Assembly (NCBI GenBank): GCA_036845805.1
Contig: DAIUDD010000001.1
Span: 628-64,627, forward strand
Direction of reading: 5' to 3'
Length of the DNA stretch: 64,000 bases
From: Patescibacteria group bacterium
Lineage (GTDB): Bacteria; Patescibacteriota; Patescibacteriia; UBA2196
The first letter of the stretch is position 1, and the number at the start of each line of letters is the position of its first letter. Shown here piece by piece: positions 15,191 to 62,497 of the stretch. A model generated the notes under the pieces. The model searched no databases. It saw only the letters and a program-made list of their open reading frames with translations, and was not told the origin of the DNA. The position numbers and the translations under genes were made by a program.

Positions 15191-15340
15191 CATTTTTTTA
15201 ATTTCCAAGATACAATTTTCAATTTCCAAATAAGTATCAAATTTCAATAACCAAATTTAAATTATTGGGGATTATAATTTGATTTTTGTAATTTATTTGG
15301 AAATTGTTTCTTGATTATTGGAATTTACTAAAGGTTAATT
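15190..15340. repeat. AT-rich palindromic intergenic repeat, copy 3 (reverse orientation)
   Basis: ccaagatacaattttcaatttccaaataag...tttatttggaaattgtttcttgattattggaatttac sits between the HlyD stop and the ATPase start. Confidence 0.55.
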
Positions 15341-17286: not shown

Positions 17287-19422
17287 ATGAAAAAGTTTTT
17301 GTTGTTTTTTGCGGTTGTACTGGCGTTTGCTACTTTGTTGTTAGCAGCGCCTCCTGGTGGCAATTCCGGCGCCATTTGGACCACCCGCGGAGACTGCGGT
17401 GATGAAACCAAAGACGCCAATCACTACAAAATTGGTGATCATATTTTTCTCAATGGGCACCAGTTTGATCCCGGCGAGTATGAATGGGAAATAAAAGGCC
17501 AGCCGGGCAATGCTAGTTGCGATCACGGCGACGTCGTCGCGAGTGGTGCATTTACCATTAGCGAAGAAGACAGTGGCGGGTTTTGCTTCGAGGCATATAC
17601 TGTGGCCGAAGATGACTGCGGCGAATATCAAGTCAAATTCGGCAACAAAGGCGACAATTATCGGGTTGAATTGCCACCACCCCCGCCTAACCCTGCCATC
17701 GACATCGAAAAGCTGGTACAAGGTGAAGACGCCGACGTGCCCACCGGTCCTGTTGTGACCGTCGGTGCAACCGTCACGTTTTCATTCATCATCACCAACA
17801 TCGGCGATGTGCCTTTGACCAACATCGTGGTCACGGATAATATCTATGGCACGATCACCCTGCCCAAGACCAGCCTGGAGGCTGGCGAATCCATGACCGG
17901 TTCGACGACCGCAATGGCCGTCGCGGGCCAGCACACCAACACCGCCACGGTGACGGGCAACTACGAAGCGCAGACCGTGACGGACGCGGATCCCGCCAAC
18001 TACTGGGGCGAAACAATGATCGAGCACCATCCTGGCATCGACCTCGAGAAACTGGTACAGGGTGAGGATGCGGATACGCCCACCGGCCCGAATGTGACAG
18101 TTGGCGCCATGGTAACCTTCCAGTTCGTTGTCACCAACACCGGCGATGTGCCGTTGACCAACATTGTGGTCACGGATGATGTCTATGGTACGATAACCAT
18201 GCCAAAGAGCAGTCTGGCTGTGGGTGAATCCATGACCGGCTCGACTGCCGCGGTGGCCGTCGCAGGCCAGCACACCAATATGGCAACCGTCACTGGTAAT
18301 TATGAAACACAAACCGTGACGGATCAGGACCCAGGTAATTACTGGGGAGAGACAAAGCGGCTGCCCCTTGGGGTACACGTGGAGTGCGTGGACAAATATG
18401 TTTTCCGTGATACATATCGGGTACACTTTATTGTTAATAACGCAAACCCGTATGAAGTTCAAATTGGGCTCGGAGCATTTAACAATATTGCTCCAATTGA
18501 GTATGATGGAAAACAGCCAACATCTTTTGGGCCAGGCAAAACCGAATATTTTCTTGAGGTGCCCAATGATGTTTTAGTGAGCTGGTTTCTCGATGTTGAT
18601 TTTGCCATGGCATCAAGAAACTCGGAAATCTGCAAATACGCCGGTACCGACGATGTTGTTGTCGCCGGAATCGGTGTGTATAAAGACGTCAATACAAATG
18701 GTCTATACGATGTCGGGGAGGATTGGATAGAGGCTGATGACCGTGGATTCATGGCTGAGGTTTACATGATTAACGCTTGGACAGGCGAGGTCGTTGGTTC
18801 ACATGCATTGTCTCCGACATTGTTCTTCCGTGCTGGGCGGTATGTTAATTACAGTTTCCGCCAAAAATGGGGCGAGTTTTATATTTTGGCGAAAACTAAA
18901 ATGCCGACCCCATCAGGATATAGGCTTTATCCAAATTACCGAGTCGTGCGCACCAGCGAGTTTCCGGAGCCGTTTTACTCGCTGGAAAATGATTTCGGCC
19001 TAGTGCCGGAATCATTTGAAGGTCCGCTGGACGGCCCATACTTGCCGATGTTGGCGGAATATTTGCCAGCGAGCGCAACTTTGGCTTATCGGGCGCAGTC
19101 ACAGCAGGCTAAGGGTAAGCTGAAAACCGAAGAAGGGATTGGGATCGCGGCTTTGCCCACCGAATTCCAACTGGAGCAGAACTATCCCAACCCGTTCAAT
19201 CCGACCACTACGATCGCCTATGATCTGCCGGCAAGCGGCCAGGTGACGTTGAAGATTTACGATGTATCCGGCCGTGAGGTTGCTGCGCTGGTGAATGAAC
19301 AGCAGCCCGCCGGCCACTACTCGGTCACCTGGCGTGCCGATCACCTCGCCAGTGGCATTTATTTCTATTGCCTCCAGGCCGGGTCGTTCAGTCAGACCAA
19401 ACGTCTGGTTCTAACTAAATAA
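17287..19422 (+). CDS. Secreted protein with two DUF11/conserved-repeat domains and a T9SS C-terminal sorting domain (Por_Secre_tail), GC-rich
   Basis: Signal peptide MKKFLLFFAVVLAFATLLLA. Two tandem repeats at about 80% identity (IDIEKLVQGEDADVPTGP...TNIVVTD). C-terminus NYPNPFNPTTTIAYDLPASGQVTLKIYDVSGREVAALVNEQQPAGHYSVTWRA..ASGIYFYCLQAGSFSQTKRLVLTK matches the type-A T9SS CTD. Confidence 0.75.
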   Translation: MKKFLLFFAVVLAFATLLLAAPPGGNSGAIWTTRGDCGDETKDANHYKIGDHIFLNGHQFDPGEYEWEIKGQPGNASCDHGDVVASGAFTISEEDSGGFCFEAYTVAEDDCGEYQVKFGNKGDNYRVELPPPPPNPAIDIEKLVQGEDADVPTGPVVTVGATVTFSFIITNIGDVPLTNIVVTDNIYGTITLPKTSLEAGESMTGSTTAMAVAGQHTNTATVTGNYEAQTVTDADPANYWGETMIEHHPGIDLEKLVQGEDADTPTGPNVTVGAMVTFQFVVTNTGDVPLTNIVVTDDVYGTITMPKSSLAVGESMTGSTAAVAVAGQHTNMATVTGNYETQTVTDQDPGNYWGETKRLPLGVHVECVDKYVFRDTYRVHFIVNNANPYEVQIGLGAFNNIAPIEYDGKQPTSFGPGKTEYFLEVPNDVLVSWFLDVDFAMASRNSEICKYAGTDDVVVAGIGVYKDVNTNGLYDVGEDWIEADDRGFMAEVYMINAWTGEVVGSHALSPTLFFRAGRYVNYSFRQKWGEFYILAKTKMPTPSGYRLYPNYRVVRTSEFPEPFYSLENDFGLVPESFEGPLDGPYLPMLAEYLPASATLAYRAQSQQAKGKLKTEEGIGIAALPTEFQLEQNYPNPFNPTTTIAYDLPASGQVTLKIYDVSGREVAALVNEQQPAGHYSVTWRADHLASGIYFYCLQAGSFSQTKRLVLTK

Positions 19423-23337: not shown

Positions 23338-23432
23338 CCTTTTCAAGGAGGGGCGGACTCTGATGAAATCAGAGCCGGGGAGGTTAATATATTCGCCGAT
23401 AGGCGTTTTGTCATCCCGCGTCCACGGGATCC
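23338..23432. repeat. Cluster of three hairpins: cccctccttttcaaggagggg, ctctgatgaaatcagag, gtcatcccgcgtccacgggatcc (GTCAT family)
   Basis: Perfect stems, located between the glyS stop and the true start of the next gene. The ORF-track N-terminal extension (23363) reads through them. Confidence 0.6.
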
Positions 23433-23446
23433 ATAAAATAATAAAT

Positions 23447-26563: not shown

Positions 26564-27256
26564 ATGCTCTACCTTGTTGCCACTCCGATTGGTAATTTAA
26601 AAGATATCACTCTTCGCGCTTTGGAAATTTTAAAGAGTGTTGATTTCATTTTATGCGAGGATACTCGTGTGACCAGAAAACTTCTCGATCATTATGAAAT
26701 AAAAAATAAAAAATTGATTGCTTATCATCATCATACTGATGCTAAAAAAACTGCCGAAATCATTGAATTAATTAAAAATAATAATGTGGCTTTGGTCACC
26801 GATGCGGGCACCCCTGGTATTTCCGATCCCGGCAATATTTTAATTGCCGCGCTTGCAGGGACAGGTTTTGACCTGTCCGCTGTGTCTGTCATTCCTATTC
26901 CCGGTCCCTCTGCTTTAATTACCGCACTTTCTATTTCTGGCTTACCTACAGATAAATTTATTTTTAAAGGTTTTGTGCCGCACAAAAAAGGCCGGGAAAC
27001 TTTTTTAAGACAAGTTTTAGAAGCCAAAGAGACAGTTGTTTTTTATGAATCATGTCATCGAATAATAAAGTGTCTAGAACAATTAAATTTATTTTGTAGG
27101 GACAGGTCTCGACCTGTCCAAATGGTTGTCTGCCGCGAACTGACCAAAAAATTTGAAACTATTTATCGCGGCACTGCCGAAGAAATCCTCGCGCAAATAA
27201 AAAAGGAGTTCCCGAACGGAACCCCAAAAGGTGAATTTGTGATCATTTCACAATAA
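26564..27256 (+). CDS. rsmI: 16S rRNA (cytidine1402-2'-O)-methyltransferase RsmI, with two in-frame palindromic insertions
   Basis: LYLVATPIGNLKDIT, ILCEDTR, DAGTPGISDPG, FYESCHR and RELTKKFE. Insertions at 26858-26878 and 27096-27119 encode GTGFDLS and CRDRSRPVQ. Confidence 0.85.
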   Translation: MLYLVATPIGNLKDITLRALEILKSVDFILCEDTRVTRKLLDHYEIKNKKLIAYHHHTDAKKTAEIIELIKNNNVALVTDAGTPGISDPGNILIAALAGTGFDLSAVSVIPIPGPSALITALSISGLPTDKFIFKGFVPHKKGRETFLRQVLEAKETVVFYESCHRIIKCLEQLNLFCRDRSRPVQMVVCRELTKKFETIYRGTAEEILAQIKKEFPNGTPKGEFVIISQ

Positions 27257-27470: not shown

Positions 27471-28958
27471 ATGTTAAATAAATTCTATCTTACCACCACC
27501 CTGCCATATGTCAATAGCGAACCGCATATTGGTTTTGCTTTGGAAATTATTCAAGCCGATACCATTGCCCGTTGGCAGCGTTTGAATGACAATGAAGTAT
27601 TTTTTAATACTGGCACTGATGAGCATGGTTTAAAAATTTATCGAAAAGCCATGGAAGAGGGCAAAGAACCGCAAGAATATTGTGACGAATATGCGGCCAA
27701 ATTTGATAATTTAAAAAACGCGCTGAATTTAAGTTATAATAATTTTATCCGCACGACCGACAAGCATCATCTAAAAGCAGCGCAAGAATTTTGGCAACGT
27801 TGTGAAAAAAACGGCGACATTTACAAAAAAAACTATCAGGTTAAATATTGTGTCGGCTGCGAATTGGAAAAAACCGAATCGGAATTAGAAAATGACAAAT
27901 GTCCGATTCATCCTAATTTAGAATTAGAATTAATTAATGAAGAAAATTATTTTTTTCGTTTTAGTAAATATCAACAGCCGCTTTTAGATTTATATCATAA
28001 AAATCCAGAATTTGTGGTGCCGGCGCATCGGCTAACCGAAATTAAAAATTTTGTCGCCGCTGGTTTGGAAGATTTTAGCATCTCCCGCCTTAAAGAAAAA
28101 ATGCCTTGGGGTATTAGCGTGCCGGGCGATGAAAATCATGTGATGTATGTTTGGTTTGATGCTCTGATCAATTATATTTCCTGTTTGGGTTGGCCCGAAG
28201 ATGAAAAAAAATTTCAAGAATTTTGGCCAGGGTGTCAGGTTGCGGGCAAAGACAATTTGCGCCAGCAATCGGCCATGTGGCAAGCCATGTTAATGTCTGC
28301 TGGCTTACCGCCATCCAAGCAAATATTTATTCATGGTTTTATTACGGCCAATGGTGAAAAAATGAGTAAATCTCTGGGCAATGTGATTAATCCATTTGAA
28401 TTAGTTAAAAAATTTGGCACTGATGCCGTGCGTTATTATTTGCTGGCTAAAATTTCTCCTTTTGAAGATGGCGATTATACTGAAGAAAAATTTAAAGAAG
28501 CTTATATTGCCGATCTTTGTAATGGTCTTGGCAATCTGGTTTCGCGTGTTTCCAATTTAATTGAAAAGAATGATATTCAAATAGAATGTCATCCTGAGCG
28601 ATTAGCGAAGGATCCCGCATCTTTTCTGTCATCCTCGCGAACGCGAGGATCCCATGGTTTTAAAGATGATCAACTGTCTAAATCATTCTCTGAAAAATTA
28701 GAAAACTATAAATTTAACGAAGCCTTGGAAATTCTTTGGAATAAACTGCGCGCCTGCGATGAAACAGTCACTAAAACTGAACCATGGAAAATTAAAGATC
28801 AAGATAGATTAAAAGAAATTTTAGAACCAATTGCAGAAGATATTTTAAATGTGGCAATTTTACTCCAACCTTTTATGCCCGAAACCGCGGAAAAAATTAA
28901 GGCTACTTTTACCGCAGAAAAAATTAAAAAAAGCGAGCCCTTATTTCCCAGAATATAA
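27471..28958 (+). CDS. metG: Methionine--tRNA ligase, carrying a 66-bp in-frame repeat-element insertion
   Basis: Class I HIGH region (PYVNSEPHIGFA), KMSKS, and zinc knuckles CxxC. The insertion CHPERLAKDPASFLSSSRTRGSHG is encoded by element 28588-28653. Confidence 0.9.
   Translation: MLNKFYLTTTLPYVNSEPHIGFALEIIQADTIARWQRLNDNEVFFNTGTDEHGLKIYRKAMEEGKEPQEYCDEYAAKFDNLKNALNLSYNNFIRTTDKHHLKAAQEFWQRCEKNGDIYKKNYQVKYCVGCELEKTESELENDKCPIHPNLELELINEENYFFRFSKYQQPLLDLYHKNPEFVVPAHRLTEIKNFVAAGLEDFSISRLKEKMPWGISVPGDENHVMYVWFDALINYISCLGWPEDEKKFQEFWPGCQVAGKDNLRQQSAMWQAMLMSAGLPPSKQIFIHGFITANGEKMSKSLGNVINPFELVKKFGTDAVRYYLLAKISPFEDGDYTEEKFKEAYIADLCNGLGNLVSRVSNLIEKNDIQIECHPERLAKDPASFLSSSRTRGSHGFKDDQLSKSFSEKLENYKFNEALEILWNKLRACDETVTKTEPWKIKDQDRLKEILEPIAEDILNVAILLQPFMPETAEKIKATFTAEKIKKSEPLFPRI
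28588..28653 (+). repeat. GTCAT-family double hairpin element inside metG, read in-frame
   Basis: gtcatcctgagcgattagcgaaggatccc + gtcatcctcgcgaacgcgaggatccc. The first unit nearly matches the left arm of the element at 180-210. Confidence 0.7.
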
Positions 28959-29562: not shown

Positions 29563-29642
29563 GTCATGCTGAACTTGATTCAGCATCCCTTTACTTTGAG
29601 ATAATTTTTGATATTTAGATCCCGAAACAAGTTCGGGATGAC
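29563..29642 (+). repeat. GTCAT-family element (two hairpins; termini gtcat...atgac) immediately upstream of tatD
   Basis: gtcatgctgaacttgattcagcatccc ... agatcccgaaacaagttcgggatgac. Confidence 0.65.
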
Positions 29643-29658
29643 AGAACAGGGTTTTGTT

Positions 29659-30624
29659 ATGACCATAATCGACTCCCACTGCCATCTTAATTTTCCCGAA
29701 TATAAAGATGATCAGGAAAATATCATTGCCGATTGCCTAAAAAAAGGGATCGGCCTTATTAACATTGGCACCAGTTTAAAAACTTCGACCGAAGTTTTTA
29801 ATTTAGCCAATCAATACCCAAATAAACCAATCTACGCCGCGATTGGTCTTTATCCCTCACATTGTTCTGATACTGATTATGACGCGCACGAGCAAGCCTT
29901 AAAAGATCCGGACATTTTTTTTAACCCAGCTTTATATCAGAAATTAATTGATGCTGATATAAATAAAAAAATTGTGGCGGTGGGTGAAATTGGTTTGGAA
30001 TATAGTTATGTGCCCTCTGGCCGTGATCTTGCAGAAATAAAAAGTTTGCAAAGACAGGGTTTTATTGATCAATTAAATTTTGCCGGGAAAAATAATCTGC
30101 CAGTAATTCTCCATGCCCGCGGGTCAAAGGAAAAACCAGATGACGCATATGAAGATATGTTAGAAATTTTAACCGCCTTTTTGTCATCCTCGCGAAAGCG
30201 AGGATCCCATGGTTTAGGTGATGAAACACAAGATTCCCGCTGGAGTTTACCCCGTACCGCGATACGGGGCGGGAATGACAGTAACCTAAAAGGCGTTCTT
30301 CATTGTTTTAGTTCAACAATCGAAATCGCTCAAAAATTTCTTGATTTAGGTTTTTATCTTGGTTTTACCGGTATTATTACTTTTAAAAATAAATCTGTTG
30401 ACAATTTGCGGAAAGTTGTTAAACTAATTTCCTTGGAGAAAATTTTAGTCGAAACCGATGCCCCGTATTTAACCCCCGAACCACATCGCGGGGAAATTAA
30501 TAAGCCGCAAAATGTTACTCTAGTGGCGCAAAAAATTGCTGAGCTTAAAAACATTTCTTATGGGGAAGTGTGTAAAATAACCACAAACAATGTTAAAAAT
30601 TTGTTTTTATGTTTTAATGTTTAA
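29659..30624 (+). CDS. tatD: TatD family metal-dependent hydrolase, with a 97-bp in-frame element insertion
   Basis: IDSHCHLNF, VGEIGLEY, ILHARGS, VLHCFSST and ILVETDAPYL. The ~31-aa insertion LSSSRKRGSHG...RGGNDSNLK is encoded by 30183-30279. The start should be the MTIID Met, not the ORF-track 29608. Confidence 0.85.
   Translation: MTIIDSHCHLNFPEYKDDQENIIADCLKKGIGLINIGTSLKTSTEVFNLANQYPNKPIYAAIGLYPSHCSDTDYDAHEQALKDPDIFFNPALYQKLIDADINKKIVAVGEIGLEYSYVPSGRDLAEIKSLQRQGFIDQLNFAGKNNLPVILHARGSKEKPDDAYEDMLEILTAFLSSSRKRGSHGLGDETQDSRWSLPRTAIRGGNDSNLKGVLHCFSSTIEIAQKFLDLGFYLGFTGIITFKNKSVDNLRKVVKLISLEKILVETDAPYLTPEPHRGEINKPQNVTLVAQKIAELKNISYGEVCKITTNNVKNLFLCFNV
30183..30279 (+). repeat. GTCAT-family composite element inside tatD, in-frame
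   Basis: gtcatcctcgcgaaagcgaggatccc...aagattcccgc...ccccgtaccgcgatacgggg cgggaatgac has the same architecture as 56513-56593. Confidence 0.7.
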
Positions 30625-30984: not shown

Positions 30985-31102
30985 TTGTTTTAATATTTTT
31001 ATTCCTAAATCATAAATCTTAATTCGTAATTCCTTTCCTTTTGATATTTCTAATGCTTGACACTTTGACACTTTTAGCCAGTCATGATATTCTTCATCAA
31101 TT

Positions 31103-32859: not shown

Positions 32860-33555
32860 ATGCCCGAGCGCCTGCAAAAAATTTTATCACGCTTAGGCAT
32901 TGCTTCTCGTCGCGAAGCCGAGAAGCTTATTTTATCTGGCCATGTCTTGGTTAATGGCCAGCGCCCAAAATTGGGTGACAAGGCCGATGAAACTCAAGAT
33001 AAAATAGTAGTCAATAATTGTTTGATTAATAGCGGGTCAAAAAATAAAGAAAGTAAAAATAATTTTATTTATTATTTATTAAATAAGCCGGTTGGCTATA
33101 TTTGTTCCCGACGGCGCAAAAAGGGGGAGCGCTTAGCCATTGATTTGGTGCCAGAAAATCCGCGCGTTTGGACTGTTGGCCGTCTGGACAAAGACTCTTC
33201 TGGATTATTAATTTTAACCAATGATGGCCGTCTGACCGAAGAGTTAACTCATCCTAAATTTGAACACGAAAAAGAATATTTGGTCGAAGTGGACAGAAAA
33301 ATAAAATCAGACTTTTTTGTCAAAATGAAAAGCGGCGTTAAATTAACTGAAGGATTGGCTTGCGCTGACAAAATTAAACCGCTTGGTACTAATAAATTTT
33401 TATTAACTATCCATCAAGGCTGGAAGCGCCAAATTCGGCGCATGTGTTATGCTTTGGGTTATTCGGTCAAATCTTTAACCCGCGTGCGGATTGGCCAGTG
33501 GCGCCTAGAAAATTTAGCAGCAGGGAAGTATCGAATAATTTCCAAGATACAATAA
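32860..33555 (+). CDS. rRNA pseudouridine synthase (RsuA/RluB family) with S4 domain
   Basis: N-terminal S4 domain (RLQKILSRLGIASRREAEKLI) and catalytic VGRLDKDSSGLLILTNDG. Confidence 0.85.
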   Translation: MPERLQKILSRLGIASRREAEKLILSGHVLVNGQRPKLGDKADETQDKIVVNNCLINSGSKNKESKNNFIYYLLNKPVGYICSRRRKKGERLAIDLVPENPRVWTVGRLDKDSSGLLILTNDGRLTEELTHPKFEHEKEYLVEVDRKIKSDFFVKMKSGVKLTEGLACADKIKPLGTNKFLLTIHQGWKRQIRRMCYALGYSVKSLTRVRIGQWRLENLAAGKYRIISKIQ

Positions 33556-33680
33556 CCAAGAAACAAATAAATTCCAACAATCAAATCACAATAAAAGATA
33601 TTTTGGCAATAATAATTTGGTCATTGTTTATTGAAAATTATTTGGAAATTGTATCTTGGAAATTGGAAATTATTTTAAAA
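33541..33680. repeat. AT-rich palindromic intergenic repeat, copy 2
   Basis: tccaagatacaataaccaagaaacaaataaattccaacaa...ttatttggaaattgtatcttggaaattggaaatt overlaps the last codons of the pseudouridine synthase ORF. Confidence 0.55.
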
Positions 33681-34137: not shown

Positions 34138-34249
34138 TTATAGAAATTATTTTCAGATTAACTTGAATTTAATTTTTGTCCGTATTTCTTGTCAGGTTTT
34201 ATTGTTTTTCACTTGACCATTTGTATTGTTTTGCTAAAATAAAAAATAT

Positions 34250-34595
34250 TTATTGAGTAGGCTGGGGACAAAAACATTCCTCTGATGAAGCTTTCAGGGC
34301 CAATTAGTGCCAAAACCGGAGGGAGGAATGTTCCCCAGCACTATTTAATATCACAGGTGTAGCTCAATGTCAGAGCCGTTGACTGGTAGTAGCCAATTGG
34401 TTAGTGGTTCGAATCAACTTGCCCACTCAAAACCGCCATCTAAACAGGATGGCATACCGGGTGTGGCCCACTCTTAACTTAGGTCCGGGGTCGCCGAGAT
34501 ATAATGCAACAAATAACCCCTTTTTACGAGTGAGAGTGTGGCCACACCATTTTTTCAGCCCGATCTCAACACCGAGACGGGCTTTTTATTTTTTA
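34250..34595 (+). ncRNA. Candidate ~345-nt GC-rich structured RNA upstream of secD; class unresolved
   Basis: Promoter ttgacc-16-taaaat at 34213-34240. Long hairpin gctggggac...cattcctc / gagggaggaatgttccccagc. A T-arm-like ggttcgaatc but no complete cloverleaf. Terminator cccgatctcaacaccgagacggg plus T-tract near 34590. Confidence 0.35.
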
Positions 34596-34650: not shown

Positions 34651-34705
34651 ATTCTTAAATCACCTGCCCGCTATCGCTACGCTCAAGCGTTGCTGGCGGG
34701 TAAAT
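34651..34705 (+). repeat. Conserved GC-rich box, copy 1; identical copy at 38856-38910
   Basis: cttaaatcacctgcccgctatcgctacgctcaagcgttgctggcgggtaaat is identical in both copies, each about 75-100 bp upstream of a start codon (secD and ORF 38963). Confidence 0.75.
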
Positions 34706-34778
34706 CTTAAATCTTTTCTCTCTTTTGTCTTACTATTTGACACATTTTTGCCTTTATTCTAAAATATAAGTAATCTTT

Positions 34779-36464
34779 ATGAATTTATCTCAAGCAACTA
34801 AAACTCGCTATAAATTAGCAGCTATTTTTGTCTTAGCTGTTTTTTGCGCACTGGTTGTTTATCCAAAAGTTCCGGCTGGGACGCCGTTGGAGAGTTTTTG
34901 GAATAAGACTAAATTTAAGCTCGGCCTAGATTTACAAGGTGGCGCTCATTTAGTTTTTCAAGCCGATACTTCACAAATTGATGCTCGGGATCAAGCTTCG
35001 GCTGTGGCTGGCACACGCGATGTCATTGAAAAACGCGTTAATGCTTTTGGTGTATCCGAACCAGTGGTGCAAACTAATCAAGTTGGCGACAGCTATCGCG
35101 TTATTGTGGAGTTGGCTGGTGTTAAAGATGTTAAAGAAGCTATTAAATCCATTGGCGAAATGCCCCTTTTGGAATTTAAGGAATTAAATCCAGAACAAAA
35201 AACAACCTTAACCCCAGAAGAAACTAAACAATTGGAAGAATATAATAACAATGCCAAAAAGAAAGCGGAAGAAATTTTAGCCCAAACCCTAAAACCAGGT
35301 GCTGATTTTAATCAGCTTGCCATTCAATACTCCGAAGACGAAGGTTCCAAAAACAGCGGTGGTGATTTGGGTTTTGCTAAACCCGGCATGTTTGTCACCG
35401 AATTTAATGATGTTATTTTTAATAAACAAAAAAACCCTGGCATTTATCCGCAAATTGTGCAAACCCAGTTTGGTTATCATATTATTAAAAAAATCGCCAC
35501 GCGCGGGGAAGGGGAGAATCTGGAAGTTAATGCCGCGCACATTTTAATTAAAACCAAATCTGAAACCGATTATCAACAATTAGATCAATGGTTAAATACT
35601 AAGCTTTCCGGCCGTCATCTAAAACGCTCCGAAGTGCAATTTGATCAAAACTCTGGCGAACCGCAAGTTGGTTTGGAATTTAATGATGAAGGCAAGGATC
35701 TGTTTGCTGACATTACCACCAGAAATGTGGGTAAACCTGTCGCCATTTTTTTAGACGGCGAAGCCATTTCTGTGCCCAATGTTAATGAACCAATTAAAGA
35801 GGGGCGAGCTGTTATTTCTGGTCGTTTTAATATTAAAGAAGCTAAACAACTGGTTGAACGTCTCAACGCCGGCGCCTTGCCTGTGCCAATTACTTTAATT
35901 TCCCAAGAAACCGTGGGCGCTTCTTTGGGTCAAGAATCTCTCGATAAAAGTTTGTTTGCTGGTTTGATTGGCATTTTAGCCGTGGCTCTTTTTATGATTA
36001 TTTTTTATCGCTTACCTGGTTTAATGGCCGTCATCGCCTTGGCTGTTTATGCTTTGATTAACTTGGCAATTTTTCAATTATTTTCCATTACTCTAACTTT
36101 GGCTGGTATTGCTGGTTTTGTTTTATCGGTCGGCATGGCTGTTGACGCCAATGTCTTAATTTTTGAGCGCTTAAAAGAAGAACTCCGCCATGGCCGCGAA
36201 TTAACCTCGGCTATTGATGAGGGTTTTAAACGCGCTTGGACTTCTATTCGTGATTCTAATATTTCTTCTTTAATTACCTGTGTCATTTTATATTGGATTG
36301 GCTCTTCCATGGTCAAGGGTTTTGCTTTGACCTTATTTATTGGTATTGTTGTTTCTTTGTTTTCAGCCATTACCGTTACCAGAATTTTATTAAAAATTTT
36401 GGTCGGTAAAAGTTTAAAAGAAAAAAAATGGCTCTTTGGCATCCATCAACATAATACTGCCTAA
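34779..36464 (+). CDS. secD: Protein translocase subunit SecD with an inserted parvulin-type PPIase-like domain
   Basis: C-terminal SecD TM bundle (GASLGQESL...LTLAGIAGFVLSVGMAVDANVLIFERL). The periplasmic segment DFNQLAIQYSEDEGSKNSGGDLGFAKPGMFVTEFNDVIFN...QFGYHIIKK resembles a PpiC/PrsA rotamase domain. Confidence 0.8.
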   Translation: MNLSQATKTRYKLAAIFVLAVFCALVVYPKVPAGTPLESFWNKTKFKLGLDLQGGAHLVFQADTSQIDARDQASAVAGTRDVIEKRVNAFGVSEPVVQTNQVGDSYRVIVELAGVKDVKEAIKSIGEMPLLEFKELNPEQKTTLTPEETKQLEEYNNNAKKKAEEILAQTLKPGADFNQLAIQYSEDEGSKNSGGDLGFAKPGMFVTEFNDVIFNKQKNPGIYPQIVQTQFGYHIIKKIATRGEGENLEVNAAHILIKTKSETDYQQLDQWLNTKLSGRHLKRSEVQFDQNSGEPQVGLEFNDEGKDLFADITTRNVGKPVAIFLDGEAISVPNVNEPIKEGRAVISGRFNIKEAKQLVERLNAGALPVPITLISQETVGASLGQESLDKSLFAGLIGILAVALFMIIFYRLPGLMAVIALAVYALINLAIFQLFSITLTLAGIAGFVLSVGMAVDANVLIFERLKEELRHGRELTSAIDEGFKRAWTSIRDSNISSLITCVILYWIGSSMVKGFALTLFIGIVVSLFSAITVTRILLKILVGKSLKEKKWLFGIHQHNTA

Positions 36465-36472
36465 GTTAATAT

Positions 36473-37399
36473 ATGCATTTAGCTATCGTTAAAAATCGCA
36501 ATAAATTCTTTATCTTCTCTGGGGTTTTAGTAATCCTCAGTATTATTAGTATTGCTGTTTGGGGTTTGAATTTTGGCATTGATTTTACCGGCGGTTCTCT
36601 TTTGGAAATTAAAATTAATAATGCCGAATTAATGAGTGCTTCTGATTTTTCCAACAAAATTACTACTCTCATGCCAACCTTGGGTGAAGTCCGCGTTCAA
36701 CCCTCTTCCGATGGCGGATATCTTATTCGTTTAAAACATCTGAGTGAAGAAGAACATCAGCAATTATTAAGAATGGCAACCGAAATTTTTAATGATCAAA
36801 ACAAAGACGTGCAAATTGAAGAAAAAAGGTTTGAATCTATCGGTCCGGTTATCGGTCAAGAATTAAAGGTTAAAGCTGTTTGGGCCATAATTTTGGCCAT
36901 GATCATGATTATTCTCTATATTGCCTATTCTTTCCGTCACGTTAGTAAACCAGTGGCTTCTTGGAAATATGGCGTCGGTGCTGTTATTGCTTTATTTCAT
37001 GATATTATTATTGTTACCGGTATTTTTGCTGCCCTCGGGCATTTTTTTGGCTATGAGATTGATTTATTATTTGTTTCCGCCCTTTTAACCATTTTAGGTT
37101 TTTCTGTTCATGATACCATTGTCGTTTATGATCGCACGCGGGAAAATTTAATTCATAATCCACAAAAAACTTTTGAGGATACCGTTGATAAAGCCACTAA
37201 TGATACCATCACTCGTTCCATTAACACTTCCTTAACCGTGTTTTTTGTTTTACTGGCCATGTATTTATTAGGTGGTGATTCTACTCGTAATTTTGTACTC
37301 GCTCTTTTAATTGGCGTCTTTTTCGGCACTTATTCTTCAATTTTTGTTGCCTCAACCCTGCTTGTTGTCTGGCATAAACTTGGCCTTAAGAAAAAATAA
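36473..37399 (+). CDS. secF: Protein translocase subunit SecF
   Basis: INFGIDFTGG and six TM helices, located immediately after secD. Confidence 0.9.
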   Translation: MHLAIVKNRNKFFIFSGVLVILSIISIAVWGLNFGIDFTGGSLLEIKINNAELMSASDFSNKITTLMPTLGEVRVQPSSDGGYLIRLKHLSEEEHQQLLRMATEIFNDQNKDVQIEEKRFESIGPVIGQELKVKAVWAIILAMIMIILYIAYSFRHVSKPVASWKYGVGAVIALFHDIIIVTGIFAALGHFFGYEIDLLFVSALLTILGFSVHDTIVVYDRTRENLIHNPQKTFEDTVDKATNDTITRSINTSLTVFFVLLAMYLLGGDSTRNFVLALLIGVFFGTYSSIFVASTLLVVWHKLGLKKK

Positions 37400-37436
37400 T
37401 TTCGGTCATCATCTGTCTCTATTTTTAAGGCGGCAC

Positions 37437-37472
37437 GTCGACGTGCCGCCTTCCTTTATTTATTAATTTTTT
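37437..37472 (+). terminator. Intrinsic terminator after secF
   Basis: Perfect palindrome aaggcggcacgtcgacgtgccgcctt followed by a T-rich run. Confidence 0.6.
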
Positions 37473-37617
37473 GTCTTTTCCTTGTCACTCACCTTAATTT
37501 CTCTCGCCCGCCAAGTGGCTGAAGGCGAAACCAGTGGCGAGCAGGCAATTTCTTTATTTCTCAATTTATTTTTTATTCATTTGACATTTTTTTCTAATTA
37601 TTGTATGATGATTATAT

Positions 37618-38754
37618 ATGACAGATCAAATACTCGATAATTTAATAAATTTTAGCCAAAATCAGGCAAAAAATCAGTTTTCTGCTCCAGAAATAGTTGA
37701 TTCTATTTTGGCCTTAATTAGTGACCGTGAGGCCAGTATTTTGCGTCAGCGCTATGGTTTAAATAATCAAAAAACACGTACTCTCGAAGCAATTGGTCAA
37801 AGTTTAAATTTAACTCGGGAGCGGGTTCGCCAAATAGAAAATCAGGCTGTCAAAAATATCTTAAAAAATAAGCGCTACGAAGAAATAGTCGCCCCTTTTC
37901 AGCGTTTAATTTTTTCTCTGGTTGCCGAACACGGCGGCTTAATGTCCGAAGATTGTTTAATTTCTAAATTAAAAGAAATGTCTATTGGCCAGCCAGACGT
38001 AGTGCCCTTTCTTAAATTTTTGTTAGCCAACTTTGTTACCGGTTTAGAACGTTTAGAGCAAGGTAATTTTAAGCCTGGTTGGCGTTCTTTAGATTTAACT
38101 TTGGAATGGGTGCAAAATATCCTTAATACTTTTGAAAAAATTTTAAACGAAAAAAATCAAATTATGGCGCACAGTGAATTAATGGATGCTTTTAAACAAA
38201 GTGAATTTTATCAAAGTGAACAAAATCACTGGCAAGAATTATTAGCAGCTAATAATCGTAATTTAGAGCAAGTAATCAATTCCTACCTTCTAGCTAGTCC
38301 CAAGTTTGCTCAAACCCCCTTTAATCAGTGGGGCCTGACCAGCTGGGGCAGTGCTTCTCCCCGTCGGATTAATGGTAAAATTTATTTATTGATGCTCCAT
38401 AAAAAACAACCGATGCATTTTACCGAAATTGCTGATTTGATTAATAAACACTGGAGTGATGAACGCCAAGTTAAAACCGCCACCGTGCACAATGAATTAA
38501 TTTTTGATCCGCGTTTTGTTTTAATTGGCCGTGGTCTTTATGGCTTGAAAGATTGGGGTTATCAAGAAGGTAATGTAGCGGATATTGTAATTGAAGTCTT
38601 AAAAAATAGCACGACCCCATTAAGTGAAGCTGAAATAATTAAGCAAGTAAAAGATAAAAAACAGGTTAAGGAAGCCACTATTAGATTAGTTTTAAAGAAT
38701 AAAGATAAATTTGAAAAATCCGCAGATAATACTTATCATTTAAAAGCCAGTTAA
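37618..38754 (+). CDS. DNA-binding protein: sigma-70 region-4-like HTH plus two C-terminal HARE-HTH-like winged helices
   Basis: ILRQRYGLNNQKTRTLEAIGQSLNLTRERVRQIENQAVKNI is sigma region 4. C-terminal MHFTEIADLINKH...GRGLYGLKDWGY and IVIEVLKNSTTPLSEAEII...YHLK are HARE-HTH-like. Confidence 0.45.
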   Translation: MTDQILDNLINFSQNQAKNQFSAPEIVDSILALISDREASILRQRYGLNNQKTRTLEAIGQSLNLTRERVRQIENQAVKNILKNKRYEEIVAPFQRLIFSLVAEHGGLMSEDCLISKLKEMSIGQPDVVPFLKFLLANFVTGLERLEQGNFKPGWRSLDLTLEWVQNILNTFEKILNEKNQIMAHSELMDAFKQSEFYQSEQNHWQELLAANNRNLEQVINSYLLASPKFAQTPFNQWGLTSWGSASPRRINGKIYLLMLHKKQPMHFTEIADLINKHWSDERQVKTATVHNELIFDPRFVLIGRGLYGLKDWGYQEGNVADIVIEVLKNSTTPLSEAEIIKQVKDKKQVKEATIRLVLKNKDKFEKSADNTYHLKAS

Positions 38755-38855
38755 TTAACATGGCTGCCGAGCAATCGGTGTCTTTTCTATTTAATATTTT
38801 TGAAGGCGAGGTTCCAGAACCTCGCCTTCATTGTTTATTAGCCATCTATTCTTAA

Positions 38856-38910
38856 ATCTTAAATCACCTGCCCGCTATCGCTACGCTCAAGCGTTGCTGG
38901 CGGGTAAATT
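38856..38910 (+). repeat. Conserved GC-rich box, copy 2
   Basis: Identical 51-mer to 34651-34705; a palindrome gaaggcgaggttccagaacctcgccttc lies just upstream at 38806-38833. Confidence 0.75.
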
Positions 38911-38962
38911 TTAGATTTTTCTCTTGTTTTTATTTTAATGTTTTTATGTTATAATATTAACT

Positions 38963-42145: not shown

Positions 42146-42264
42146 ATAATAATAACAAATCAGAAATTAGAAGCTCTAAATTTTAAATAAATTATAGTTT
42201 TTAATTTTTAATATTAAAATTTAAATATTGTTTAGAATTTCGAATTTAAGATTTGGAATTTTTT

Positions 42265-42693
42265 ATGAAAATCCTTGCTCTCGACTATGGCGTTAAAAAT
42301 ATTGGCCTTGCCCTCACCGATGTTGAGGGCAATTTTGCTTTTGCCTATGACACCTTGCGCGTAGAGACACAAAATTTTGCGTCTCTACAAAAAATAATTG
42401 CTGATTTAAAAAATATTTGTGCTAAAGAAAAAGTGGAGAAAATAATTATTGGCTTGCCCGTACAATTATCTGGAGAAAATAGTTCTGCTACTGTGGCCGT
42501 GTTTGAGTTTGTTAAACAACTAGAGCAGGGGATAGGTTTGCCAGTAGAAACCATTGATGAGCGCTGGAGCACCATGCAAGCTCACAAAATTAGTAGGGAC
42601 AGGTCGCGACCTGTCCGTGCCAATAATATCGATGCTCTTTCCGCCCAAATTTTATTGCAAGGGTATTTAGAAAAAATAAGAATTACTAATTAA
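42265..42693 (+). CDS. ruvX: Putative pre-16S rRNA nuclease / Holliday junction resolvase-like RuvX (YqgF), with in-frame 24-bp palindrome
   Basis: MKILALDYGVKNIGLALTD and RNase H-like fold. The insertion SRDRSRPVR is encoded by 42593-42616. Confidence 0.8.
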   Translation: MKILALDYGVKNIGLALTDVEGNFAFAYDTLRVETQNFASLQKIIADLKNICAKEKVEKIIIGLPVQLSGENSSATVAVFEFVKQLEQGIGLPVETIDERWSTMQAHKISRDRSRPVRANNIDALSAQILLQGYLEKIRITN

Positions 42694-44187: not shown

Positions 44188-44239
44188 TTTTTTATTCTTA
44201 AATCGTAATTCTTAAATCTTAAATCGTTTTTTAAGTAAT

Positions 44240-54359: not shown

Positions 54360-54445
54360 GTCATTTTGAGAAGCAAAGCGACGAGGAATCCCAATATAAA
54401 TTTAAAAGAGATCCTTCGCCCCGCATTTGCGGTGTTCAGGATGAC
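54360..54445 (+). repeat. GTCAT-family MITE with both arms related to the GIY-YIG element TIRs
   Basis: gtcattttgagaagcaaagcgacgaggaatccc...AT loop...agagatccttcgccccgcatttgcggtgttcaggatgac. Compare with 280-311 and 631-658. Confidence 0.7.
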
Positions 54446-54460
54446 AACCGTTTAGTTTTT

Positions 54461-56500: not shown

Positions 56501-56512
56501 TTAATTTTTTGT

Positions 56513-56593
56513 GTCATCCCCGCGTAAGCGGGGATCTCGTGAACCAAGAGTTTGTAACAAAGATTCTGGGATTCCCGCTTTCGCGGGAATGAC
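56513..56593 (+). repeat. GTCAT-family composite element (termini gtcatcc...gggaatgac)
   Basis: gtcatccccgcgtaagcggggatc...aagattc...gggattcccgctttcgcgggaatgac. The ORF-track reads it as an N-terminal extension of nfu. Confidence 0.7.
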
Positions 56594-58107: not shown

Positions 58108-58217
58108 ATTATAAATTAAGAATTATTAATTAAGAATAAATATAAAAAAACAAAAATTAAATAAAATTTTTTAGTCTTAAATCGTAAATCTTAATTCTTA
58201 CCTCTTAAATCTTTTTT

Positions 58218-59264: not shown

Positions 59265-59295
59265 GTAGGGACAGGTCGCGACCTGTCCTGTTTTT
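59265..59295 (+). terminator. Intrinsic terminator formed by the 20-bp palindrome GGACAGGTCGCGACCTGTCC plus T-tract
   Basis: gtagggacaggtcgcgacctgtcctgtttttt lies 2 nt after the stop of the 58571-59263 gene. The same palindrome occurs inside rsmI and ruvX. Confidence 0.7.
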
Positions 59296-60247: not shown

Positions 60248-61507
60248 ATGGATCTCTTTACTGATCATTATCAAAAAAATTGGCGCACTACCGCTCCTTT
60301 AGCCGAACGGCTTCGACCAACAAAACTGGAAGATTTTGTTGGGCAAGAAGAAATTGTCGGCCCCAATTCTTTATTACGAAAAGATATTGCTGCCAATCAG
60401 TTAAGTTCTTTAATTTTTTGGGGCCCGCCCGGGAGTGGTAAAACTACGCTAGCGACCGTGATTGCCAATTTGACCAAATCTTTTTTTATTGAAATTTCAG
60501 CCGTCTCTGCTGGCATTACTGATTTACGCACCGCGATTAAGCAAGCCGCTGACCAAATAAAATTTTATCAGCGTCCAACAATTTTATTTGTTGATGAAAT
60601 TCATCGCTGGAATAAAGCCCAGCAAGATGCTCTCTTGCCTTATGTGGAAAAGGGTCTGATAATTTTAATTGGTGCGACCACTGAAAATCCTTCTTTTGAA
60701 GTGATTGCCCCTTTATTGTCTCGGGTTAGAATTTTTACTCTAAAACCTCTCACGCCCTTAAATTTAAAAATTATTATTAATCGAGCCCTAAAAGACGAAA
60801 TTAACGGTCTTGGTAAATATCGGGCCAAAATAGATCCAGCAGCAGAAAATTTTTTAATTCAAACCAGCAATGGTGATGCGCGTGTTATGCTTAATGTTTT
60901 GGAAGTTGCTATTAAAAATTGCGCTTTAGATAAATTTGATGAGCGTCTGATTGATATTAATTTAATTTCCGAAGCTTTTCAACATCCACCACTTAAATAT
61001 GATAAATCTGGCGAAGAACATTATAATGTTATTTCTGCTTTTATTAAATCAATGCGCGGTTCAGATGTTGATGCTGCTCTTTATTGGTTGGCGCGCTTAC
61101 TTACCGCTGGCGAAGATCCAAAATTTATTGCTCGGCGGATGATTATTTTTTCTTCGGAAGATATTGGTAATGCCGACTCTATGGCTCTCGTGGTAGCCAA
61201 TGCCGTTTTTTCGGCTGTAGAAAAAATTGGTTTGCCCGAATGCCGTATTAATTTGGCCCAGGGGGTGGTTTATTTAGCCAAGGCACCCAAGTCTAACAAG
61301 TCCTATCTTGGTCTTTTAAACGCCGAGGCCGAAGTGAAACAAAGTTTAAACTTGCCCGTGCCTTTGCATTTGCGTAATGCCGTCACCAATTTAATGAAAG
61401 AATGGGGTTATGGCGAGAATTATAAATATCCGCATTTGGAAGATGATTCAGCGCAAAAATATCTGCCGGATAAGTTGATTGGCAAAAAATTTTATCATGA
61501 TTTGTAA
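60248..61507 (+). CDS. rarA: Replication-associated recombination protein A (RarA/MgsA AAA+ ATPase)
   Basis: RPTKLEDFVGQEEIVG, Walker A GPPGSGKTTLA, FVDEIHRWNKAQQD and the MgsA C-terminal domain. Confidence 0.9.
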   Translation: MDLFTDHYQKNWRTTAPLAERLRPTKLEDFVGQEEIVGPNSLLRKDIAANQLSSLIFWGPPGSGKTTLATVIANLTKSFFIEISAVSAGITDLRTAIKQAADQIKFYQRPTILFVDEIHRWNKAQQDALLPYVEKGLIILIGATTENPSFEVIAPLLSRVRIFTLKPLTPLNLKIIINRALKDEINGLGKYRAKIDPAAENFLIQTSNGDARVMLNVLEVAIKNCALDKFDERLIDINLISEAFQHPPLKYDKSGEEHYNVISAFIKSMRGSDVDAALYWLARLLTAGEDPKFIARRMIIFSSEDIGNADSMALVVANAVFSAVEKIGLPECRINLAQGVVYLAKAPKSNKSYLGLLNAEAEVKQSLNLPVPLHLRNAVTNLMKEWGYGENYKYPHLEDDSAQKYLPDKLIGKKFYHDL

Positions 61508-61612
61508 CTCCGAACTTTAGTTCGGATAGTTTTTATCATGATTTGTAACTCCGAACTTTAGTTCGGATAGTTGTTATATCTTGTAACTCCGAACTTTAGT
61601 TCGGAATTCATA
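61504..61612 (+). repeat. Three tandem REP hairpins (tgtaactccgaactttagttcgga), including a duplication of the last rarA codons
   Basis: The 41-bp unit tttatcatgatttgtaactccgaactttagttcggatagtt is repeated. Palindromic core ccgaact-tt-agttcgg. A fourth copy lies at 62346-62369. Confidence 0.8.
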
Positions 61613-62093: not shown

Positions 62094-62345
62094 TCCCATC
62101 TAAAGATGGGAGTTACATTCCGGCCTAAAGGCCGGAGTTACATTTTAAAAACCACCACGCGTTGACATGATGGTTTTTTTAATCTTCACCTTACCCCCTG
62201 TTAGCGCAAGATCAAAACAGGAAAACCTGCTTAACCTTGACTTAGACTACTCGATCTAGCTAGGAGGAAGCCGTCACTTTGGTCACTAAACAAGGGGAAA
62301 GGTAAAGATTATGATTTTGAACCTTTGTTCAGAAGTATTATGTCT

Positions 62346-62369
62346 TGTAACTCCGAACTTTAGTTCGGA
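62346..62369 (+). repeat. REP copy downstream of the RAYT gene
   Basis: tgtaactccgaactttagttcgga. Confidence 0.8.
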
Positions 62370-62497
62370 CCTTTGTTAATAAAAAAATCCTCCCACCGAA
62401 ACTCCTGATATAAAACATGATTATCTATATAATATAATAATAAAAAATTAATTTGTCAAATTTAAAAAATAAAAAGGGCGCTATTTTCTCGCGCCCT

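Follow-up and report, generated by a model that had tools for sequence, protein, structure and literature searches.

The window analyzed here, 64,000 nucleotides (nt) from contig DAIUDD010000001.1 of a Patescibacteria group bacterium (GenBank assembly GCA_036845805.1), carries two identical GC-rich boxes, one upstream of secD and one upstream of the open reading frame (ORF) starting at position 38963. An earlier note on this DNA had offered three interpretations: a shared cis-regulatory site, a leader RNA structure or a small mobile box. We conclude, with a probability of about 0.8, that the boxes are copies of a 38–40 nt GC-rich, hairpin-forming dispersed element which resembles repetitive extragenic palindromes (REPs) without carrying their GTAG or CGTC tag, and which is selfish or mobile rather than a shared regulator. 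Among the three interpretations, the mobile box gained from the finding of the element in over 60 assemblies that belong to distant phyla, in both orientations, within genes and in nested form. The cis-regulatory site and the leader RNA both lost ground, given the absence of the box from four relatives and its position between terminator and promoter.

On its + strand the window has exactly two copies of a 52-nt string, at 34654–34705 and 38858–38909, with 0 mismatches. None would be expected by chance, as 0 of 100 dinucleotide-preserving shuffles matched the string, even when up to 3 mismatches were allowed. Alignment of the two regions added one flanking base, giving a 53-nt identical block (34653–34705 and 38857–38909), and identity collapsed on both sides of it. 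The block contains a 38-nt core, CCTGCCCGCTATCGCTACGCTCAAGCGTTGCTGGCGGG, which is an imperfect palindrome located on the + strand at 34663–34700 (copy A, ends uncertain by about 1 nt) and, by sequence identity, at 38867–38904 (copy B). The layout of this core is CCTGCCCGC-TATC-GCTACGC-TCAA-GCGTTGC-T-GGCGGG. Along the stem-loop path UGCCCGCUA / UC / GC / U / ACGC-UCAA-GCGU / U / GC / UGGCGGGUA, the + strand of the block forms 15 base pairs, with a folding energy of −21.8 kcal/mol (z = −4.6). The hairpin of the − strand is weaker (−17.4 kcal/mol), because the imperfections of the box are G.U pairs, which leave the + strand RNA with the stronger fold. In size and shape the core agrees with the 20–40 bp imperfect palindrome and stem-loop of REPs, and pair counts over 81 variants lead to the same description. 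These results confirm the exact two-copy GC-rich box and the small nested hairpin of the earlier note, and correct its statements that the box is not palindromic and that each copy lies 75–100 bp upstream of a start codon; the boxes end 74 nt before the secD start and 54 nt before the start of ORF 38963. In an Rfam search at the gathering threshold only tRNAs passed and the box matched no family, and permissive E-value Rfam scans of copy B and of one copy from the Planctomycetes-Verrucomicrobia-Chlamydiae (PVC) group returned nothing credible over the box.

Both boxes interrupt, in phase, a tandem heptamer array of the form (TCTTAAA)n. On the + strand, the array split by copy A spans 34653–34713 (parts 34653–34662 and 34701–34713) and the one split by copy B spans 38850–38920 (38850–38866 and a degenerate part at about 38905–38920). 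Subtraction of the 38 nt leaves the in-phase arrays TCTTAAA TCATAAA TCTTAAA TC at site A and TCTTAAA TCTTAAA TCATAAA TTTTAGA at site B. These are nearly identical to an uninterrupted array at 31003–31025 (TCCTAAA TCATAAA TCTTAAT TC, + strand), which resembles an "empty site" for the box; the reconstructed box-free array reads TCTTAAATCATAAATCTTAAATC, and the insertion point AAATCA^TAAAT is common to both copies. The "tcttaaatc-type AT motifs" that had been remarked on near the boxes are real and correspond to these period-7 arrays, and they are found at three box-free sites as well: at 31003–31025, in the spacer upstream of rplU (L21) at 44196–44225, and at 58175–58211, all on the + strand. 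Altogether, five TCTTAAA-like arrays of period 7 occur in short spacers between co-directional genes, 60–100 nt before the starts, and two of the five hold a box.

Contigs from the JGI and Logan metagenome collections encode the exact window proteins and bear the same boxes, and the nearest different genomes have SecD proteins 70–74% identical. Four of these relatives (L124–L127, SecD 72–74% identical), compared as 21-kb loci with 10-kb flanks, keep the gene order rluA-tsaB-secD-secF-sigma-like-DUF8128-traG-like. An nhmmer profile of the box gave no match in the four loci even at E ≤ 10, and both orthologous spacers are without a box. Two of them, L124 and L125, have a secD spacer of just about 40 nt that retains the same TTGACA-17-TAAAAT promoter. 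The DUF8128 spacer of L124 has a terminator and an equivalent TGnTATAAT element (TGCTATAAT) with no box, that of L126 has two unrelated GC-rich hairpin elements, and that of L127 has a hairpin and a TACGAAT heptamer array. The boxes are lineage-specific additions to spacers that attract such DNA. The orthologous conservation and fixed promoter spacing expected of a cis-regulatory or leader element were not observed, the box being absent from L124–L127 and its spacing differing between sites A and B.

The core was found well beyond this lineage. In a first scan, covering one genome per species with the pattern GCCCGC-N4-GC-N-ACGC-N4-GCGT-N-GC-N-GGCGGG (24 specified bases), it was present in at least 119 stretches from at least 63 assemblies. 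Among the stretches listed, a single likely chance match (Rhodococcus) was recognized and all others look like true members. Patescibacteria hosts among the matches listed include Saccharibacteria, Moranbacteria, Kerfeldbacteria, Woesebacteria, Levybacteria, Roizmanbacteria and others; the remaining hosts listed are Verrucomicrobiota, Chthoniobacterales, Kiritimatiellia, Lentisphaerae and Victivallales, together with assemblies labelled Bdellovibrionales and Gammaproteobacteria. One contig labelled "Bathyarchaeia" is probably a mis-binned contig of the candidate phyla radiation (CPR), because its neighbouring proteins cluster with those of CPR. LepA from a Kiritimatiellaeota locus and LepA from a Patescibacteria locus are only 40% identical, and the hosts of the family are therefore genuinely distant. 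Copy number varies greatly between assemblies, with up to at least 9 stretches per assembly among the matches listed; like REPs, which are found mainly between co-directional or convergent ORFs, the family is multi-copy and dispersed, its low-GC loci falling mainly between co-directional genes and rarely between divergent ones, and the window holds two copies. A second scan, in which only the outer stem, TAC and TTGC were fixed and the inner bases were free, added at least 120 metagenome contigs, mostly of 35–45% GC, with 39-nt relatives such as CCTGCCCGC-AGATGC-TAC-GCATC-A-AGCGTTGCAGGCGGG. Shorter relatives were recovered from the same assemblies with nhmmer, including 36-mers and a 32-mer, CCTGCCCGCARTGC-TACA-GCGTTGCAGGCGGG, whose symmetry is broken only by G.T or C.A oppositions. 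No viral contig matched the core pattern (0 matches), and a plasmid collection from cultured bacteria gave chance-level partial matches in GC-rich genes only. A search of the literature for these sequence strings, or for such elements in CPR, found nothing specific.

The family core can be written as CC(N)Y-GCCCGC-N4-GCTACGC-N4-GCGTTGC-N-GGCGGG. At the T.T mismatch, two positions left free by the search pattern are T in 99% of the listed matches, and the third base upstream of the core is C in 97%; CC(N)Y was therefore counted into the element (38–39 nt), whose length we estimate at about 38–40 nt. Two mutually exclusive pairing registers are available to this sequence. In register X, a 10-bp outer stem surrounds an inner hairpin of the form N3-GC/TAC/GC-N3; its three variable inner pairs show two-sided changes in 11–20 sequences each (GC, AU, UA and CG), and are unpaired in 31–47% of copies. 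Register Y is a continuous bulged hairpin through ACGC/GCGT with pairs in 93% of cells, most of its positions being fixed by the pattern. The second set is less constrained, and in it three elements covary (GC/GC/GC, CC/GG/CC, TC/GA/TC): the dinucleotide that precedes TAC, the complement of this dinucleotide on the far side of TAC, and the two bases ahead of GTT. These joint changes indicate that both helices are maintained. The analysis points to a single-stranded form, DNA or RNA, as what may matter for the element, since its G.T imperfections make one strand the better folder. At its ends the element reads CC(N)Y (5′) and GGG (3′), with no GTAG or CGTC tag of the REP type at either of them; GTAG occurs in the box only on the reverse strand, at the centre (GCGTAGC).

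Several copies reside within genes. When the product of a Saccharibacteria trmD gene is aligned to PDB 3ky7, the gap facing ...TATPAFATRKRCG... measures exactly 13 residues, and the predicted junction peptide across this copy is ...HQTATPAFATRKRCGRVDD.... Further copies were found in long ORFs matching ten other proteins (TopA, TatD, phosphoglucomutase, PrmC, ArgRS, FemAB, MurB, Wzy, DnaX and ScpB). The copy in TopA lies in the C-terminal CPKCG zinc-finger motif, as read from the sequence, and TatD of locus L013 has, relative to PDB 1j6o, an insert of about 24 residues made up of the box and short flanking repeats. The in-gene copies are presumably translated, because their length is a multiple of 3 and they are free of stops in the frame used. 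By inspection, 9 of 11 in-gene copies in CPR are antisense to the strand designated +, and between co-directional genes of low-GC loci the two orientations are represented by 8 and 11 copies, with few copies between divergent genes. At one Saccharibacteria locus (L058:~470–535), a copy stands directly after the apparent 3′ CCA end of a tRNA gene (...GGTTCGACTCCTCTCTCGCCCACCA|GCCCGC...).

The insertions appear precise and show preferred targets. In PVC assemblies, many full 39-mers are centred, in opposite orientation, within a 36-mer or 39-mer relative, and subtraction of the 39 nt restores the host element. The insert measures exactly 39 nt and brings no target duplication, both in TrmD and in the nested copies, and the combination of terminal inverted repeats (TIRs) and target-site duplication that characterizes MITEs (miniature inverted-repeat transposable elements) was not found. 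When the flanks of copies were joined without the element, they paired across the junction at a mean of −11.0 kcal/mol compared to −7.9 kcal/mol at controls (p = 3.5e-6), and at least 11 spanning pairs formed at 36% of copies and 21.5% of controls. The hairpins that host the element at their apex include GTAG-type, TGTCATTC-type and terminator-like stems. The link to heptamer arrays also extends beyond the window: on low-GC contigs, strong self-similarity at lag 7 marks both flanks of 15.8% of 133 distinct sites, the share among controls being 0.1% and other lags yielding essentially no such sites, and the heptamer unit varies by locus (CTCAAAT, CCCAAAT, CCAAGTT, GTGGTAT and others). Target-site duplication as a general feature was rejected, flanking direct repeats of at least 8 nt being present in only 8.6% of copies, all of them members of tandem arrays. 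The idea that the arrays are accumulated 7-bp insertion footprints was also rejected, on the grounds that the TrmD and nested inserts are without duplication.

In the window, the genes around the boxes are all on the + strand, in the order rluA-like, tsaB-like, secD (with a peptidyl-prolyl isomerase insert), secF, sigma-r4/HARE-HTH, a DUF8128 membrane protein, a TrwB/TraG-like ATPase and ruvX. Upstream of copy A, a terminator-like hairpin with a T run (gcccgatctcaacaccgagacgggcttttt) at 34558–34592 (+), assigned from sequence and fold with no call by the automated terminator scan, closes a structured non-coding region at 34248–34592. Upstream of copy B, the scan placed the intrinsic terminator of the preceding sigma-r4/HARE-HTH gene at 38801–38838 (+), a 13-bp stem followed by TTGTTTATTA. 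On the other side, a sigma-70 promoter of secDF (TTGACA-17-TAAAAT) is predicted at 34737–34765 (+), its −35 hexamer beginning 36 nt past the end of copy A. For ORF 38963 an extended −10 element, TGTTATAAT (TGnTATAAT), was read from the sequence at 38947–38955 (+), 7 nt before the ATG; this position makes the ORF an almost leaderless gene, and 45 nt separate the end of copy B from the −10 hexamer. Both boxes therefore sit in terminator-to-promoter spacers and probably outside the leaders, because each lies upstream of a predicted promoter. The box itself does not have the makings of an intrinsic terminator: the scan gave no call on it, and its stem is followed by TAAATC or TAAATT rather than by a T run.

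Other explanations of the boxes were weighed against this evidence. That they are a shared operator or activator site co-regulating secDF and the DUF8128/TraG-like operon is suggested by two identical copies on the same strand, just upstream of predicted promoters, and by the envelope or secretion functions of both downstream genes. Yet both orthologous spacers are box-free in four relatives, with L124 and L125 keeping the secD promoter; the two sites are unequal in promoter distance, with 36 nt to the −35 at A and 45 nt to the −10 at B; the core occurs elsewhere within genes, in both orientations and in unrelated phyla; and the box splits a pre-existing array that is intact before other genes. 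The pattern that the earlier note had itself named as speaking against regulation, copies inside genes on either strand, was encountered in other genomes, though not in the window. We regard such a site as highly improbable. We find no support for a role of the box dedicated to regulating secDF and the 38963 operon, and its effect on secDF and ORF 38963 is most likely neutral. Back-up termination or stabilization of transcript 3′ ends has often been proposed for REPs, and the box could likewise act as an RNA element, either in one of these capacities for the upstream transcript or as a leader structure. The stable + strand hairpin (−21.8 kcal/mol, z = −4.6, compared to −17.4 on the − strand) and the T-rich sequence 3′ of copy B are compatible with this, and REPs are commonly located downstream of ORFs, with G.T pairing (PMC3733652). 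However, each copy is preceded by a terminator-like hairpin and its T run and followed by the next promoter, the stem does not lead straight into a U tract, the terminator scan is silent on the box, family orientation relative to genes is unbiased, and terminating copies within essential genes would do harm. An RNA role of this kind seems very unlikely to us.

A third possibility, which we consider unlikely though not negligible, is a functional DNA motif for a common host factor (nucleoid, topoisomerase or replication-associated) that is kept by selection instead of mobility, in the manner of the bacterial interspersed mosaic elements and REPs bound by gyrase and integration host factor. The unusual conservation of the core between phyla whose LepA proteins are 40% identical, the two alternative helices upheld by covariation and the lack of a linked transposase would all suit such a motif, but copies are not at orthologous positions in relatives, copy number differs greatly among assemblies, and nesting and in-frame inserts in random housekeeping genes resemble insertion events. 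A narrower question concerns the second copy in the window, which could derive from recombination or gene conversion between similar heptamer arrays rather than from a second insertion; this is compatible with a dispersed mobile element, and the window copies would fit either two insertions into one kind of array or one insertion followed by array-to-array recombination. Identity reaches past the 38-nt core, taking in 10 nt of array to its left and 5 nt to its right, and both arrays are of the same type. On the other hand, it ends within those 10 nt and 5 nt of the core, a target preference would predict the same insertion point, and the wide distribution of the family is left unexplained; we think recombination rather doubtful as the origin of the second copy.

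Some further identities were considered and rejected. Inspection of the consensus revealed neither the RYYYAAC nor the GTTRRRY core motif of integron attC sites. Dif/Xer sites, mini-introns of the bulge-helix-bulge type, translational bypass and a library-adaptor artefact were dismissed on sequence or geometry, and the artefact is further contradicted by covarying variants from many assemblers and by the in-frame inserts.

Under the interpretation we favour, that of a selfish or mobile REP-like palindrome, the element could spread by way of a hairpin intermediate that is single-stranded. This intermediate would be acted on in trans by host functions or by an enzyme whose gene lies elsewhere, and integration would take place where DNA is transiently single-stranded, as in hairpin loops and slippage-prone arrays. 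A transposase of the HUH type, similar to IS200 or to the REP-associated tyrosine transposases (RAYTs), would be one candidate enzyme. Such a route is suggested by the duplication-free insertion, the strand-asymmetric wobble pairs and the preference for apexes and arrays. Several observations weigh against a mobile element. All-against-all clustering of 1879 ORFs in 8-kb blocks around the copies recovered only common housekeeping families as recurrent neighbours, and a tblastn search of 1.86 Mb of flanking DNA gave no match with an approximate IS200 TnpA query, which would miss RAYTs. Within a single species no polymorphism between filled and empty sites was observed, and mobility is accordingly deduced from distribution only. 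Many positions of the core were fixed by the search patterns, which makes their conservation partly circular, and host taxonomy was taken from the titles of metagenome-assembled genome records. The exact box variant of the window genome had 0 matches in the metagenome scan; the window has two copies in 64 kb, and its source genome is not among the genome-contig matches listed. Furthermore, conservation across phyla is far above the norm for REP families and could signal a conserved host function. Both copies are on the same strand, upstream of promoters and in an array type found before several genes, and a local effect on transcription is conceivable.

Compared with known small repeats, the family is closest to REPs, most of which fall into GTAG- or CGTC-tagged superfamilies (Di Nocera et al., 2013; PMC3733652). 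REPs have been described with complex self-complementary loops, G.T pairing, families common to distant species and copies in frame within genes. Intragenic copies of the GTAG type are most numerous in the verrucomicrobium Opitutus terrae, and those of the CGTC type in Rickettsia conorii, as RPE-4 and RPE-6 (PMC3733652). The box family shares with them a GC-rich imperfect palindrome of 20–40 nt with G.T pairs, multiple copies located mostly in intergenic regions between co-directional genes, and the lack of target duplication. It also has sub-families with compensating stem changes, self-complementary "complex loops" and occasional in-frame intragenic copies. In contrast to REPs, neither of its ends bears an unpaired GTAG or CGTC tag, it forms no dimers 20–100 bp apart in the window of the kind known as REPINs, and no RAYT was seen in the flanking DNA covered here (for REPINs and RAYTs, see Bertels and Rainey, 2011; PMC3116915). 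It further departs from them in its one near-invariant core across Patescibacteria and PVC and in its frequent in-phase siting in heptamer arrays.

In behaviour the box family also resembles the Rickettsia palindromic elements (RPEs), being in frame in housekeeping genes and adding a short peptide (the 13-residue gap in TrmD and the copies in ten other genes). RPEs are said to be palindromic selfish DNA, in frame in housekeeping genes without inactivating them, and RPE-1 is reportedly about 100–150 bp long and confined to Rickettsia. The likeness is one of behaviour alone. The box insert is 13 codons long and its hosts are CPR and PVC; RPE-4 and RPE-6 have been equated with CGTC REPs (PMC3733652). 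For mobile-looking repeats of the size of the box, the nearest precedent is found in the small dispersed repeats (SDRs) of cyanobacteria, likened here by their description and not by sequence. SDRs are reportedly mobile in appearance and far shorter than 100 nt, with no encoded protein, TIR or target duplications, and SDR5 is said to insert into another short repeat, HIP1. According to PMC5861425, the SDRs (Elhai et al., 2008; also described in PMC3116915) are 21–27 nt long and were reported only in Nostocaceae. Very AT-rich yeast mitochondrial DNA offers another comparison: its GC clusters are GC-rich palindromic mini-elements that are sometimes located in coding sequence, and their "byp" derivatives are bypassed by the ribosome. 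Those clusters, however, are unrelated in sequence and belong to a eukaryotic organelle, whereas the in-gene copies of the box are presumably translated.

We tentatively raise the possibility, of which we are far from convinced, that the family represents an undescribed and ancient class of "naked" DNA hairpin elements of 38–40 nt common to Patescibacteria and PVC. A conserved trans-acting partner would keep its core and its mutually exclusive covarying helices. The class would spread without a linked transposase and insert precisely at hairpin apexes and heptamer microsatellites, perhaps generating arrays, and would lengthen essential proteins by peptides of 13 residues. Should the family be confirmed, a single palindrome of 38–40 nt would be near base-for-base identical across CPR and PVC, with in-frame residence tolerated in trmD, topA, murB and argS and a tie to period-7 arrays. 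It would then be a tractable handle on the movement of very small repeats and on the persistence of REP-like sequences, and would account for odd short inserts in CPR proteins and for spurious small ORFs in metagenome annotation. For annotation of the window, the boxes should not be taken as a regulon signal; small GC-rich palindromes have colonized the short spacers of this genome and several of its genes.

Other repeats were recorded in the window. A GTAG-tagged REP family, GTAG-GGACAGGTC-NNN-GACCTGTCC, has copies at 26855–26878, 27096–27119, 42593–42616 and 59265–59288, three of the four being within ORFs: two in the TP_methylase-domain (rsmI-like) ORF at 26564–27256 and one near the 3′ end of ruvX (42253–42693). 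A second GC-rich family of the form TGTCATCC-hairpin-GGATC was found at 23409–23433, 28626–28657, 30181–30212, 30236–30281 (−), 54417–54450 (−) and 56510–56542. Two adjacent copies of this type lie in frame in tatD (29608–30624), where they correspond to about 36 extra residues (FLSSSRKRGSHGLGDETQDSRWSLPRTAIRGGNDSN), which another CPR TatD lacks, and one lies within a class I tRNA-synthetase ORF (27471–28958). An intergenic hairpin repeat family consists of three tandem units of 38–41 nt at 61490–61609 and a distant fourth copy at 62333–62373, each with TGTAAC-TCCGAAC-TTT-AGTTCGGA. In addition, there are three MITE-like AT-rich elements of about 140 nt (1851–1991, 15192–15332 and 33529–33674) with arms of about 51–54 nt that are 72–73% complementary (ATTTCCAAGATACAAT...).

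The structured non-coding region upstream of secD is a separate feature of this part of the window. The stretch at 34213–34592 opens with a site that resembles a promoter (TTGACC-16-TAAAAT, with TG) and continues with some 345 nt of non-coding sequence that is strongly structured (−129 kcal/mol, z = −6.5) and has the terminator at its end. It includes a weak tRNA-like stretch at 34356–34423 (23 bits, below threshold), received neither an Rfam nor an ARAGORN call, and is absent from the closest relatives L124 and L125; we consider it a candidate for a novel small RNA or an insertion remnant. A tandem pair of 300-nt units at 17692–18330, 77% identical and 339 nt apart, is probably a repeated protein domain; it lies where the GC content of the window is highest, at about 46%. 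Finally, comparison of a Patescibacteria LepA (L113:4498–6393) with a PVC LepA revealed short additional stretches, among them HPEHSEGSVKDSSFTAKAGTQNDNG and, once more, PEHSEGSDG, which look like in-frame copies of other GC-hairpin repeats.

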